IMG/VR virus record: IMGVR_UViG_3300025603_001562
Origin: an uncultured virus (IMG/VR IMGVR_UViG_3300025603_001562)
Taxonomy: Duplodnaviria > Heunggongvirae > Uroviricota > Caudoviricetes
Reading direction: 5' to 3' (one strand)
DNA: 20,000 nucleotides
Under the pieces are notes generated by a model. That model saw only the letters and a program-made list of their open reading frames with translations. It did not search any database and was not told the origin of the DNA. Within the stretch, counting starts at the first letter, position 1, and each line of letters opens with the position of its first letter. Positions 6,573-19,504 of this stretch are shown one piece after another. The translations under genes were made by a program, and so were the position numbers.

Positions 6573-8432
6573 TTAGCTTTTTAATTCAAGTTTATACCTC
6601 TTCATAACATCTATTAGAATACCTGAGCGAACGATTTCATCTTCTGTGAATTGTATAAAACCAATTTTTGGAAGGCCTTGAAACCTATTAAAAGCATCGT
6701 CTAATCCTGAGCGCTGACCATTTCTTAGATAAAGGTCTGTTTGGTCTGTGTCTCCGATAATTATAAGCTTTGAACTTTCTCCTTTACGAGAAATCCAAAG
6801 CTTTAACCCAGCTACTGTTGTATTCTGCGCTTCATCAATTATTGCTACTGAATTTTCAAACGTTTCACCACGAAGATATGCAAGAGGAACATATTTAACA
6901 ACGTCATTCTGAATGAAGTCCTTTGTCTTTGTTGAGCCTACAAGTTTTTTAAAATTTCCCAAAAATGAGTCCATATAGGGGTCTATTTTTGAGTCTATGT
7001 CTCCAGGTAAGAACCCTATTGATTCGCCAGCTTCTACAATTGGTTTTGTGAGTATAATCTGGCTATATTCGTTGTCAATTTTCAGTAATTCTAAAGCAGT
7101 TTTTAAACTAAGTAAGGTGTTGTGAGTAACATTATAATCTCTTGTCACATATAAATGTCTTGGGTGGTCTATGTGAATACAAACACACTCTTCTTCTCCT
7201 TGTTTTTCGACACCAGTAATATATTTTATTTTCATTCTTTTTTTATCAGAAAATAGTCCTGCTTTTCTTGATAACTTAAAAGGGTTAAGCGTTTCAAATA
7301 AAACAGTGACAACATAGCATATCTTTCCTTGCTTTTTTTCTCCAAATTTATCTGTAAAAAAGGGTTTTTTAGTTCTAATTGAAGAAATACCACCAAGGCT
7401 TCTAATTAGCTCCATGACTTGACTAGCTAAAATTTGCGACGTGGTGTAATATTCAATAGAAGAGCCATTTTTAGGGATATGCCCATCTGTATCCATTAAA
7501 CCCCTTAGTAACTCCACCCTATCTTCAACAGAAGAGTAGAGATATTTATCAGGAATTATTTTCTCATGAGATTTTTGACCCATTAAACCTAAATCCCTCA
7601 TCTCAAAGAGGAGTAAATTATTCGCCTTATTTGACCTTGTCTTAGTTGTTATGTAATAATCATAATTATCTCCAGGTTTTTTACTTATCTTAACAGGGTG
7701 AGGGAGGCTTTGCTTAAACTCACAAATAATTTCTTCGTCCGCAGAGCTAAACGAGACAAAATGTTGGCTGTAGCACCCGTCGCCTATTAAACAGCCCATT
7801 AGATAAGGGTTAATTATTAGTTCTTTATTTGCAAACTGTATAGGATTGCAGATGGGGATTGAGTGGTTTTTCCTGCCTCGGTTAGTCAGTAAGCTCTCTT
7901 TTATTTCAAAAGTAGTTTTTACTGCTCCTGACAGCGGCTCTCTTATTGCAACCCCATTCCTTTTTTTTCTATTATTTCTATCAGCTTCTGTTTGTGTTTC
8001 CCATAAATGCTCACCACAGCATAGTGTATGCGTTCCATCAGAAAAAGACACCTTATAGACATCTTTTTCTCCTTGTGGATGAATAGAGTTGACATTTACA
8101 GGTGTTCCATCAACCGAAATTACTTTATCTCCAGGACGAATGCTTCCGATTTCCACAAAACCGCCAGGCGTTAATATAGGCTCAGTTAGTGGTTGCGCCT
8201 TACCTGTCCCAGCAGCTCCAGCAACAAATGTGATTTCATTTTCCATGATAGTTTTGCACAGAAGCTTTTGCTTAGCGTTTTTGTGCTTAATATCTTTGTT
8301 GATTTGAAAATGAGATATTGCATTAAGCCTATCCATCTGAGCTTCCTTATCTCTCTCTAAGCCCATTTTTTCCAAGTCGCTTTGTATCTCACGAGATGTT
8401 TTTTGGCGTTGTACTTTTCTGTTTTTATTCAT
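6573..8432 (-). CDS. phoH: PhoH-like ATPase containing an intein (259-aa spliced product)
   Basis: GAAGTGK|T P-loop, IILTKPIVEAGESIGFLPGD, PLAYLRGETF, IIDEAQN, IIGDTDQTD and EDEIVRS motifs. Confidence 0.93.
   Translation of the reverse strand: MNKNRKVQRQKTSREIQSDLEKMGLERDKEAQMDRLNAISHFQINKDIKHKNAKQKLLCKTIMENEITFVAGAAGTGKAQPLTEPILTPGGFVEIGSIRPGDKVISVDGTPVNVNSIHPQGEKDVYKVSFSDGTHTLCCGEHLWETQTEADRNNRKKRNGVAIREPLSGAVKTTFEIKESLLTNRGRKNHSIPICNPIQFANKELIINPYLMGCLIGDGCYSQHFVSFSSADEEIICEFKQSLPHPVKISKKPGDNYDYYITTKTRSNKANNLLLFEMRDLGLMGQKSHEKIIPDKYLYSSVEDRVELLRGLMDTDGHIPKNGSSIEYYTTSQILASQVMELIRSLGGISSIRTKKPFFTDKFGEKKQGKICYVVTVLFETLNPFKLSRKAGLFSDKKRMKIKYITGVEKQGEEECVCIHIDHPRHLYVTRDYNVTHNTLLSLKTALELLKIDNEYSQIILTKPIVEAGESIGFLPGDIDSKIDPYMDSFLGNFKKLVGSTKTKDFIQNDVVKYVPLAYLRGETFENSVAIIDEAQNTTVAGLKLWISRKGESSKLIIIGDTDQTDLYLRNGQRSGLDDAFNRFQGLPKIGFIQFTEDEIVRSGILIDVMKRYKLELKS
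7119..8198 (-). mobile_element. 360-aa Ala1 (class 3-type) intein with LAGLIDADG homing endonuclease, inserted in the PhoH P-loop
   Basis: Starts AQPLTEPILTP and ends VTHN|T. Block B CCGEHLW, block F ECVCIHID; LAGLIDADG motifs YLMGCLIGDG and LLRGLMDTDG. Confidence 0.9.
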
Positions 8433-9659: not shown

Positions 9660-9935
9660 ATGGAAACAGTTTGGAAAATAACTAACACAGGAAGATTAGA
9701 CAAGATTAAGTTCACCGTTGCTATCGCATCGAATAAATCTCCAGGAGTATTCTTAAAGAAAGACGAATTTATTCTTTCACAAAAAAGAATGACTACAATG
9801 CTTGATGCCCAAGCCAAGAGAGGCTACGTGGCAATTGAAGAATTTGAAAATGTAGACAACATCGTTATCGGAGAGGTAATGAAGATGTCGGATTCTGAGT
9901 ACGCTCAGAAGCGAGTTCAAGATTACTCTAAGTGA
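9660..9935 (+). CDS. Hypothetical protein whose stop codon is supplied by the inserted IS-derived element
   Basis: 91-aa ORF with an A-rich leader; the TGA at 9933-9935 lies inside the element's right end. Confidence 0.75.
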   Translation: METVWKITNTGRLDKIKFTVAIASNKSPGVFLKKDEFILSQKRMTTMLDAQAKRGYVAIEEFENVDNIVIGEVMKMSDSEYAQKRVQDYSK

Positions 9936-10047
9936 ACTACCCACCCACGCCAGAGGCGATGGGATGGGCTTCAAGGGTCAACGCTCCAACTAGTGTTGGC
10001 AACTTACCTTGATTTTTTCTGTCAGTTCCTGACAAAATATTTCTTAA
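9912..10047 (-). ncRNA. Putative TnpB omega-RNA (reRNA) scaffold plus about 20 nt of flank-derived guide
   Basis: Nested stems on the minus strand (tgtcag-gaa-ctgaca; tcaagg...ccttga enclosing ccaac-acta-gttgg; terminal right-end hairpin). The same bases translate as LRNILSGTDRKNQGKLPTLVGALTLEAHPIASGVGG*, which resembles a TnpB C-terminal tail. Confidence 0.65.
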
Positions 10048-10160
10048 TGTACAAAAATACAAAAGTTTAAAGAAATAACAAAATTTATTTAAAATAATTA
10101 AGATAAGGTCGCTTACATCCCACCCACACTACGTGATGAGTGGGCTTTACGCTCCGTAAT
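9932..10160 (-). mobile_element. Non-autonomous IS200/IS605-family miniature element (PATE-like) lacking tnpA and tnpB
   Basis: Two related subterminal hairpins: cccacccacgcc-aga-ggcgatgggatggg (9940-9968) and cccacccacac-tac-gtgatgagtggg (10119-10144). On the minus strand it ends ...TAGTTCAC and is preceded by TTAC. There is no target duplication, and excision restores AAG TAA. Confidence 0.8.
10052..10082 (-). promoter_or_regulatory. Bacteroidota housekeeping promoter TTTG-N19-TATTTTTG inside the miniature element
   Basis: The minus strand reads TTTG ttatttctttaaacttttg TATTTTTG, an exact match to the -33/-7 consensus TTTG-N19-21-TAnnTTTG. Confidence 0.75.
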
Positions 10161-10162
10161 GT

Positions 10163-10552
10163 AAAAATGCAATTCAAGGTCAAAAAGAAGGAAGGCTAAA
10201 ATGTGCTCCAGTATCAAAAGCTGAAAGAGAGATAGTAAATAGACTCAGAGAAAAAAGCATAAAATCTGAATCTCAGTTTTCGTTAGAATCATTCAAGTTC
10301 GACATATACATCCCTGATAAAAATCTTCTTATAGAATATAATGGAGACTATTGGCATTGTAATCCTTTAAAATATTTACCTAGTTTTATTCATCCTCATA
10401 AAAACAAAACAGCTAAAGAACTTTGGAAAGCTGATGATAATAAGAAAAAGCTTGCAATTAAGTCTGGATTCAATCACCTTACTATTTGGGAATCTGAATA
10501 TAATGCAGATAAAAATAAAATAATAGAATCACTGATATCATATGGAGAATAA
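10163..10552 (+). pseudogene. 5'-truncated Vsr-like/DUF559 (PD-(D/E)XK, EDxHD-type) homing endonuclease
   Basis: Not in the ORF track (no start codon). The open frame reads KNAIQGQKEGRLKCAPVSKAERE...FKFDIYIPDKNLLIEYNGDYWHCNP...LWKADDNKKKLAIKSGFNHLTIWESEY...*. Confidence 0.8.
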
Positions 10553-12490: not shown

Positions 12491-13327
12491 ATGATAATCT
12501 ACAAAACAACGAACGTAATAAATAAAAAAATCTACATAGGGCAAGACTCAAATGACAATCCTAAATATTTAGGGTCGGGGTTACTTCTTCATAAAGCGAT
12601 TAAGAAATATGGAAAAGATAATTTTAAAAAGGAAGTGCTAGAGGTTTGTTCCGACAGAAAGTGTTTAAATAAGCAGGAAATATATTGGATTAAATTTTAT
12701 AAAGCGACTGACAAGGAAATTGGATACAATATATCTGAAGGCGGAACTGGTGGTAAATTAGTTCTTGTTGAGGGTAAAAAAGGTAAAACTTATGAAGAAT
12801 ACTATGGAGAGAAGAAAGCGAAAGAGCTAAAGGCTCTTTTTTCTAAAATTAGAAAAGGAAAAAAAAGAAAATACGTCAATATAACAGCTGAGGAAGTAGG
12901 TAAAAAGGTAGGCAAAGCATTAAAAGGGAGAAAAGTATCCAATGAATGTAAGGGTAAAATTAGTAATACGCTAAAGAAGTATTTTCAAACAGAAAAAGGG
13001 ATTAAATCAAGAAAAAGCATTAGCGGATTTCACACTGGAAGAAAACATAGTGAAGAAAGTAATAAAAAAAGAAGTGACGCCATGAAAGGGAGACGGCCAA
13101 AAATAATGGACATTCACCCCAGTGCTCGATATTGGTTTTTTTATGACAATAAAAATAAACTAATTTTCGAAACACTTGGAGATAAAAAGCATGCCTTAGA
13201 AAAGCTAAAAACAAATCAAAGAAAATTAGTGACTTTTGATAATTTGAACGATTGCTTAAATTATAAATTAGAAGACAGTAAGCATTTTAAAGTTTTTTAT
13301 AAAAAGTATTATAAAAAGAAAACCTAA
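12491..13327 (+). CDS. GIY-YIG homing endonuclease (Seg-like) with NUMOD3-type DNA-binding repeats
   Basis: MIIYKTTN..NKKIYIGQ, YLGSG, AIKKYGKDNFKKEVLE, EIYWI, GYNISEGG and GRKHSEESNKKRS motifs. Confidence 0.93.
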   Translation: MIIYKTTNVINKKIYIGQDSNDNPKYLGSGLLLHKAIKKYGKDNFKKEVLEVCSDRKCLNKQEIYWIKFYKATDKEIGYNISEGGTGGKLVLVEGKKGKTYEEYYGEKKAKELKALFSKIRKGKKRKYVNITAEEVGKKVGKALKGRKVSNECKGKISNTLKKYFQTEKGIKSRKSISGFHTGRKHSEESNKKRSDAMKGRRPKIMDIHPSARYWFFYDNKNKLIFETLGDKKHALEKLKTNQRKLVTFDNLNDCLNYKLEDSKHFKVFYKKYYKKKT

Positions 13328-17686: not shown

Positions 17687-19504
17687 ATGAGCGGACTTAT
17701 TTCCGATTACCAAGATAAATATATCATTTCCGAGTACTATACATTTAATGCTCCAACCCGTGAAATGATTATAGAGGCTGAAAAAAAATATCAGCCTATC
17801 GTGATGTCTGGAATTCTTCAGATAGCAGATACGTTAAATAAAAACGGTCGAATTTACCCATACGAAATTTTAAAGCGCGAGGCTGATAAGTACATGGAGC
17901 TCGTAAAGGAAAACGTGGCTGGTGGTGAACTTGACCATCCTGATTGCAACTCATTAGACACTAGCATTTTAACCATTAACGGCTGGAAGAAGCTAATAGA
18001 TATTGCAGAAGATGAGTTTATATATACTTTAAATCAGGAAACTAATAAAATTGAGGCTCATAAGATTGATAAAAAAATCTTAGAACCCTATAGTGGTAAG
18101 ATGTATCACTTTAAGGGTAAAGGAATTGATTTGATGGTTACTCCAAATCATAGATTTATACTTGAGACATCTGATGGGGTATCTTTTGAGAAGACAGCAT
18201 CTGAGCTGTCTGAGTATAGAAGCGGAAAGTGGAGAATTCCTAAAAAAGGAAATTGGGATGGAATTAATTACGATTCCTATATAATCCCTGGAATCGAAGA
18301 GTTTAAACCACACATAAGCAATGAGCTTAAGGATAAATATTCTCAAAACCTTGTTGTTAATGCAAAAGCGTGGTTTGCTTTTTTAGGTTTGTATCTAGCT
18401 GATGGAACTTCTGCTGGAGTGTGTGGGAGCAAAGCAAAACACAACCTCGTTAAAATTACACAGAAGAAGTCTGAGAATTTTGAGGCAATTAGAAAAATAT
18501 TTGATGATTTAGGGATAGAGTATAACGAACGTGTTTATAGAGATGGGAAAATAGATTTTCAAATTTACGATGCACGACTTAAGCAATATCTATTTCCTTT
18601 AGGGAATAGTTCTGAAAAATACATTCCAGAAGATATAAAAGCAGCTAATTCAGAATTGCTGACTATTCTTTTTGAAAATTTTCACATGGGAGATGGAACA
18701 TCTAAAACATCTTATCATAAAGACAAAGGATATGTGTGTAAAAAGATTTTTTCTACTTCAGAAAAGATGATTAAAGACTTTAGTGAGGTGCTGTTAAAAA
18801 TAGGGCTCCACGGAAATATAACTCAAGAACAACCTGTAGATAGATATATAAATGATGTAGTCGTTCTTGAAAAAGAAGTGGTGATGTCAGATGGGGCTGT
18901 AGAGATGGTTAAAGAAGAAATTTTAAAACCAAGATTGATTGAGGCTAAAAATAGTAAAACTAAATTCATCCTTAATGTTAGCACTACAGATTTTATTTAC
19001 ATGGATGAGAGATTTTTAAAAATCTCTCAAATCCAAAACCCGTTTGATAAAGTAGCTTGTGTCAGAGTTAAAAACGGAAATTTCTTTGTAATGCGTAATG
19101 GTAAATCCCATTGGACTGGAAACTCCGCAGTTGTATCTCTCGCTAATGTTTCACACCGTGTTGTTGAGATGTGGTGGGAAGGAAAAGAATTATGGGGCCG
19201 AGTGCAAATTGCTGAAACAGATGCAGGCAACACGTTGAAGGGTCTTCTAAAAACTGGATTCAAATTAGGAATTTCTTCTCGTGGAGTAGGAAGTGTTAAG
19301 TCTCAGGGTGGACAAGACATTGTGCAAGATGATTTTGAACTAATCGCTTTTGATTATGTATCAAACCCATCAACCCCAGGGGCTTACCTTTTTAAAGAAG
19401 GTTATATGAGACCACTTAAAGGGGTTAAAGAAAAAGCTAAATCAATAGGAGAGCTTAACCGTTTACAACTTATTTCTCAGAAATCTTTCTGGCAATCAGC
19501 GTAA
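17687..19504 (+). CDS. Prohead core protease (T4 gp21-like) containing an intein (212-aa spliced product)
   Basis: GILQIADTLNKNGRIYP, GELDHPD|S, VSLANVSH, LGISSRGVGSV, VQDDFELIAFDYVSNPSTPGA motifs. Confidence 0.93.
   Translation: MSGLISDYQDKYIISEYYTFNAPTREMIIEAEKKYQPIVMSGILQIADTLNKNGRIYPYEILKREADKYMELVKENVAGGELDHPDCNSLDTSILTINGWKKLIDIAEDEFIYTLNQETNKIEAHKIDKKILEPYSGKMYHFKGKGIDLMVTPNHRFILETSDGVSFEKTASELSEYRSGKWRIPKKGNWDGINYDSYIIPGIEEFKPHISNELKDKYSQNLVVNAKAWFAFLGLYLADGTSAGVCGSKAKHNLVKITQKKSENFEAIRKIFDDLGIEYNERVYRDGKIDFQIYDARLKQYLFPLGNSSEKYIPEDIKAANSELLTILFENFHMGDGTSKTSYHKDKGYVCKKIFSTSEKMIKDFSEVLLKIGLHGNITQEQPVDRYINDVVVLEKEVVMSDGAVEMVKEEILKPRLIEAKNSKTKFILNVSTTDFIYMDERFLKISQIQNPFDKVACVRVKNGNFFVMRNGKSHWTGNSAVVSLANVSHRVVEMWWEGKELWGRVQIAETDAGNTLKGLLKTGFKLGISSRGVGSVKSQGGQDIVQDDFELIAFDYVSNPSTPGAYLFKEGYMRPLKGVKEKAKSIGELNRLQLISQKSFWQSA
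17945..19123 (+). mobile_element. 393-aa intein with LAGLIDADG homing endonuclease in the prohead protease
   Basis: Starts CNSLDTSILTINGWK, block B VTPNHRF, ends FFVMRNGKSHWTGN|S; LAGLIDADG-like motifs FLGLYLADG and LFENFHMGDG. Confidence 0.9.

Follow-up and report, generated by a model that had tools for sequence, protein, structure and literature searches.

A 229-bp gene-less IS605 miniature in a jumbo phage retains a predicted omega-RNA scaffold beside a predicted tnpB promoter

The closest described relatives of the locus reported here are PATEs, which according to the accessible text of one preprint often encode omega-RNAs that are acted on in trans by the TnpB proteins of other elements (Meers 2023, bioRxiv 10.1101/2023.03.14.532601). 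The PATE-like elements of Geobacillus stearothermophilus treated there have no protein genes, possess IS605 ends, encode an omega-RNA that needs TnpB in trans and are retained through cutting of the excision site, features that the present element shares, the last two by prediction. The PATEs of Haloquadratum walsbyi, as far as the available part of PMC3119063 describes them, resemble it in lacking inverted terminal repeats and target duplications, in having subterminal palindromes and in arising by internal deletion of an IS605-type element. Standalone omega-RNAs of OMEGA systems, likewise mobilised without an effector, work in trans with compatible effectors (PMC10691335, accessible text), and the omega-RNA of ISDra2 TnpB (PMC10097598, accessible text) offers a structural counterpart, with a scaffold of ~116 nt over the tnpB tail, a stem 1, a 3'-end pseudoknot and a guide taken from the flank. 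Gene-less PATEs with omega-RNAs served by TnpB in trans had thus already been described when an earlier note on the present DNA took its minimal module to be new (Meers preprint; PMC10691335). The trans activity of gene-less elements has mostly been asserted and seldom measured in natural elements. A literature search (titles and abstracts, with few subscription papers and no supplements) found no description of gene-less miniatures of this sort in phages, and the accessible portions of bioRxiv 2022.10.12.511977 and of a cyanophage preprint held nothing further on miniatures.

The element lies in a 20,000-nt stretch of DNA from an uncultured virus of the Caudoviricetes (IMG/VR IMGVR_UViG_3300025603_001562), hereafter the window, in which positions are given unless a contig is named. 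It occupies 9932-10160 on the minus strand and is a gene-less miniature of IS605 (IS1341-type), 229 bp in length, with ends 90–94% identical to those of a full-length element, L007. We refer to it as miniature A. At this size it is too short for TnpA or TnpB, and it lacks the TnpB coding sequence that marks autonomous IS605/IS1341 elements. Palindromes are subterminal at both ends, terminal inverted repeats and target duplication are absent, and the insertion point lies 3' of a tetramer that the left-end guide specifies. This tetramer, TTAC (10161-10164), directly precedes the left end and is the predicted TAM core, in keeping with tetramer pairing across the family. The guide tetramer, AAAG (10145-10148), covaries with the target tetramer and falls in the same register as AAAA in a second miniature, B. 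The left-end subterminal hairpin (10119-10144), a predicted TnpA site, has a folding z of -2.46; the right end (9932-9972), delimited by hairpin folding and scaffold alignment, comprises a GAAG tetramer, a subterminal hairpin (9939-9969, z -3.41) and a TCAC end. Both hairpins fold better than shuffles. On the minus strand the right end reads ...GTAGTTCAC, finishing TTCAC. The boundary is fixed by the register with B and other relatives and by the AAAG tetramer; a second TTAC (10156-10159) was considered as the target and ruled out, since register with relatives puts the end at 10160. The predicted guide is flanking DNA (9912-9931, minus strand), antisense to the last codons of a 91-aa gene. 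On re-measurement every position given in the earlier note held. An Rfam search gave three weak chance matches, none on the element, and the GenBank phage and plasmid collections contained no match. The 229-bp form is known from one site only.

The last 116 nt of the element fold with a z of -4.60, equalled by none of 200 shuffles, and encode a tail 89% identical to residues 357-392 of a real TnpB. Across 14 same-length relatives, picked from 26 rows because they align without gaps, 99.6% of cells in a predicted structure of 38 pairs are paired and 16 of the 38 pairs show compensatory change. These values were reached by none of 500 shuffles, a control that kinship among the 14 relatives inflates, and slid controls had 33–45% of cells paired. 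Stems 1–3 hold nearly all of the covariation: stem 1 (10018-10036) has compensatory change at four of its seven pairs, and stems 2 and 3 (9971-10012) at 11 of 14, with 100% of cells paired. A possible pseudoknot of four pairs, between the stem-1 loop (10025-10028) and the 3' end (9934-9937), lies where that of ISDra2 does and is compatible with the alignment, being 98% paired with no compensatory changes. Every predicted pair is intact in miniature A, and its scaffold, on the minus strand throughout, is complete and covarying. Compared with ISDra2 (PMC10097598, accessible text), the scaffold is of another sequence family, has a shorter stem 3 and goes with a TTAC target, and its structure is a predicted one.

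A tnpB-bearing relative with these ends, on which the earlier note had made its reading depend, was found in a scan of viral contigs. L007 is a tnpB-only element whose 393-aa TnpB matches NCBIfam guided_TnpB (E 2e-100) and has the motifs with the D, E and D catalytic residues; its left end is 90% identical to the miniature over 123 nt and its right end 94% over 126 nt. The junction can be read directly from contigs aligned to L007: 1,080 bp of the parent are skipped (1353 to 2434), with three letters of microhomology (10047-10049). The miniature descends from a tnpB-only IS605 element by internal deletion, just as the earlier note had supposed in proposing that a deletion removed the proteins and kept the promoter beside the scaffold; the ends of L007, the junction and the covarying scaffold all bear this out. 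Immediately after the full-length parent, L007:2552-2620 resembles a tmRNA 5' end and is a candidate for one. In addition, long open frames (354–409 codons) run antisense to tnpB in L007 (1487-2551, minus strand) and in L113 and L115, and the accessible text of the cyanophage preprint describes an ORF of this sort on the reverse strand.

The deletion kept the last 118 nt of the parent, a full predicted omega-RNA scaffold, and put the -7 box of the tnpB promoter 120 nt from the right end. The predicted promoter (10052-10082, minus strand) is of the Bacteroidota sigma-A type, with TTTG at -33 and TAnnTTTG at -7, the consensus being that in the accessible part of PMC7366714. It reads TTTG-N19-TATTTTTG, exact matches to which number only three in the 76.5-kb contig that holds the window, and the same motif precedes tnpB in L007. 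It is the parent's own predicted tnpB promoter, now adjoining the scaffold, and this direct fusion distinguishes the miniature from the Geobacillus stearothermophilus PATEs.

How often deletions spare the scaffold can be asked of the whole family. Twenty unique rows below 600 bp with both ends (exact right-end pattern) fall by junction into 13 independent lineages, miniature A included, and stem 1 is kept in all 13, a count that takes in only rows with a detected left end. Stem 1 was detected by script in 17 rows and by eye in L054; L011 and L060, two copies of another lineage, keep stem 1 and carry a single change in the loop of the pseudoknot. By chance seven to nine lineages would be expected to keep stem 1 (7.1–8.8, P 7e-5 to 4e-3 over the nulls), with 7.2 of 13 expected and P 2e-4 for uniform breakpoints; with three rows dropped, miniature A among them, P is 9e-4. 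Thirteen scaffold-sparing deletions out of 13 are a quantitative hint of selection. The Haloquadratum walsbyi PATEs differ in this respect, the available text of PMC3119063 including 52-bp terminal-only forms among them.

Many of the rows without a detected left end stop 110–170 nt from the right end, and four of them, L121 (81 nt), L132 (100 nt), L159 (106 nt) and L191 (hairpin only), miss part or all of the scaffold. L132:2090-2241 is a hybrid hairpin that starts as a left end and finishes as a right end; the scaffold after it is truncated within stem 1. Right-end fragments of 110–160 nt with no detected left end (L026/L058, L062/L091, L078, L124, L126, L141 and L147) may come from aborted homing or from loss of the left side. 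The promoter is less widely kept than the scaffold: a promoter-like motif is present in only 10 of 20 full-length parents, and a consensus promoter stands beside the scaffold in only two of the 13 lineages, miniature A and the L011 group. Promoter and scaffold also occur together in L036, which has no detected left end (promoter about 125–155 nt upstream of the right end) and is possibly an immobilised guide-RNA gene.

Over 56 element rows of this family, guide and target tetramers change together. AAAA guides go with TTAT targets in 43 of 45 rows, AAAG guides with TTAC in seven of nine and TCAC in two of nine, and AAAT with TTAA in two rows, leaving two other rows. This pattern fits the guide rule of IS608. 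With TAMs deduced for all elements from insertion sites alone, six TTAC-type TnpBs form one group (93/86 support, below the tool's mark for strong support), outside which the TTAT-type TnpBs fall; the TTAC-type proteins are 77–82% identical to that of L007, and one comes from a Bacteroidales MAG. The scaffolds nearest to that of the miniature (96–97%) belong to TTAT-targeting elements, and L115, the sole nearest-scaffold element in the tree, sits in another TnpB clade. It follows from the grouping of the TnpBs that the nuclease serving miniature A would likely not be the one that serves miniatures B and C.

These other miniatures are found in the same phage. The window is part of a 76.5-kb viral contig (G000; CheckV 24% complete) and its DNA recurs in a 446,956-bp record, L118, at 99.9% identity over 5 kb; overlapping records together cover 304,477 non-redundant bases of this phage, 68% of about 447 kb. 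They carry five miniatures of three lineages (A once, B twice and C twice) plus a solo right end (L191). The earlier note had called for a search for further copies and for a full-length tnpB: other miniatures of the family are there, and neither tnpB nor tnpA was found in the 304 of about 447 kb covered. Miniature B (356 bp, TTAT target; G000:C1:8-363, G002:C1:73326-73688 and 81550-81912) is identical at two sites with different flanks, from which we conclude that the family's miniatures are mobile within this phage. Its consensus promoter stands farther from the scaffold, an extra internal segment lying between the two. Miniature C (L177:4578-4866; L190:1501-1760, minus strand) has an insert of ~40 nt before the right-end hairpin, and its second copy, C2, is damaged, having lost the 5' arm of the left hairpin. 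At about 38749-38765 of G002:C1, TTAT is followed by a 12/12 match to the predicted guide of C2, a possible self-target, given that about 0.5% of AT-rich 12-mers would match by chance and that five guides were compared. For the predicted guide of miniature A, no TTAC plus 12-nt match with up to two mismatches was present in the 304 kb. Four sequencing runs bearing the phage contain tnpB relatives, and among the contigs listed none spans a close L007-like element.

Right-end matches in genome contigs are to Bacteroidota in 33 of 48 cases and 17 of 31 assemblies (as labelled; MAGs can be misbinned), and a Shine–Dalgarno motif is seen in only two of 268 phage ORFs (cf. the accessible text of PMC6847099). 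Judged from such sequence features, the host is likely a member of the Bacteroidota. The setting, a jumbo phage that likely infects Bacteroidota and in which no tnpB was found in the searched 68%, differs from that of the Geobacillus stearothermophilus PATEs, and whereas the standalone omega-RNAs of OMEGA systems have an effector in the same genome (PMC10691335, accessible text), none was found here in 304 kb.

At its right end the miniature meets an intact, conserved 91-aa gene (9660-9935, plus strand), for which it provides the TGA stop and the final base of the codon before it. That insertion broke this gene was considered and rejected, the gene being intact with homologues of the same ending (two of 11 likewise end QDYSK). 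On the left the element borders directly on a homing endonuclease gene whose 5' half is missing exactly up to that point, a border absent from the earlier note. What remains (10160-10552, plus strand) is the C-terminal half, 130 codons, of a NUMOD3/Vsr-like enzyme, homology to which starts at the element's left end; in a search of proteins of at least 229 aa, 42 of the best 44 homologues listed are 243–329 aa long. We infer that a deletion of ~400 bp, bounded by the element, removed the 5' half, through either TnpA-mediated adjacent deletion or recombination between two copies; earlier decay of the gene that happened to stop at this point is less likely. Both routes imply a TTAC at each of the two sites, so the target proposed in the earlier note likely existed in the ancestral allele. 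A literature search found nothing on adjacent deletion by IS608. No element-free allele was seen in viral contigs, where single-protein and alignment queries returned the same four element-bearing loci only, and no joint across the element was found in the four runs, where contigs can establish that an allele is present but not that it is absent; the miniature occupies every copy of the locus that was recovered. The surrounding region of the window is rich in homing elements, with LAGLIDADG inteins in PhoH and the prohead protease (6573-8432, minus strand; 17687-19504, plus strand) and a free GIY-YIG gene (12491-13327, plus strand).

We propose that the miniature is a PATE, formed by the 1,080-bp deletion, whose omega guide RNA would direct a TnpB supplied in trans to cut element-free sites, repair then restoring or spreading the element, and we judge this reading, on balance, somewhat probable. 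The retained promoter would start a minus-strand transcript near 10045-10049, about 115 nt plus a guide derived from the flank; a TTAC-clade TnpB from the host or another phage would load it and cut element-free copies of the site, and repair of the break would restore or copy the element (homing). The miniature itself would be mobile through TnpA in trans. The gain would be retention after peel-and-paste excision and copying into empty alleles during co-infection, a benefit that, most simply, is the element's own (selfish) rather than a weapon of the phage. The guide-RNA reading is favoured by the parent with matching ends, the exact junction and the covarying scaffold, by the closeness of the 118 nt kept to the 116-nt minimal ISDra2 scaffold, by retention of stem 1 in every complete lineage, by the movement of B, by a TTAC-type TnpB clade with a Bacteroidales MAG member, and by the description of such a mechanism for PATEs and standalone omega-RNAs. 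Against it stand the lack of tnpB and tnpA in 304 kb and of a recovered element-free allele, the single site, the TTAT targets of the nearest scaffolds, the rarity of the promoter beside the scaffold, the changed loop of L011/L060 and the scaffold-deficient remnants.

Several of these points would equally suit an inert relic, in which the anatomy is as described, there is no cognate TnpB or transcription, and the miniature persists harmlessly at a stop codon. The empty search for tnpB and tnpA, the single site and the fact that every recovered copy of the locus is occupied, leaving no target in view, all agree with this, as do the damaged C2 and the solo right end in the same phage. A relic need not, however, have every predicted scaffold pair intact, an exact consensus promoter and non-random scaffold retention across its family, and the gene search spans about two thirds of the genome; we regard this reading as possible and rather doubtful.

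Retention itself might owe nothing to TnpB, if deletions favour the AT-rich stretch immediately before the scaffold or if TnpA needs a long right end. Microhomology partners are indeed 1.4–2.8 times denser in that stretch than within the scaffold, but a null weighted for microhomology expects only 8.0–8.8 of 13 lineages to keep stem 1 (P 0.001–0.004), and the 52-bp terminal-only PATEs of Haloquadratum may be mobile (PMC3119063, accessible text), which makes this explanation very unlikely. We give equally little credence to a domesticated competition module, in which a host TnpB and phage guide cassettes would cut rival phages in co-infection: five miniatures of three lineages without a nuclease gene in 304 kb would suit it, and the accessible part of a 2026 review (PMC13565253) includes in a table non-restorative homing by transposons directed at co-infecting phages, but the guides are mere insertion-site flanks and the transposon ends are intact. 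That the cassette is mainly an antisense promoter damping the 91-aa gene, whose 3' end (gene 9660-9935) the promoter faces, is scarcely credible, as it leaves the conserved scaffold unexplained and the arrangement is absent from most relatives.

A bolder extension of the guide-RNA reading, which we consider improbable, is that a TnpB-less jumbo phage with RNA-only homing cassettes of three lineages recruits host TnpBs of differing TAM, and that at this locus the cassette converts empty alleles, erasing the 5' half of the endonuclease gene. If true, a 229-bp RNA-guided element would have displaced a protein homing element. The natural promoter-plus-guide cassette and the closely matching TnpB of L007 form a clean test pair, and if homing works with a host-supplied TnpB, this would show that a guide RNA by itself is enough for phages to spread DNA.
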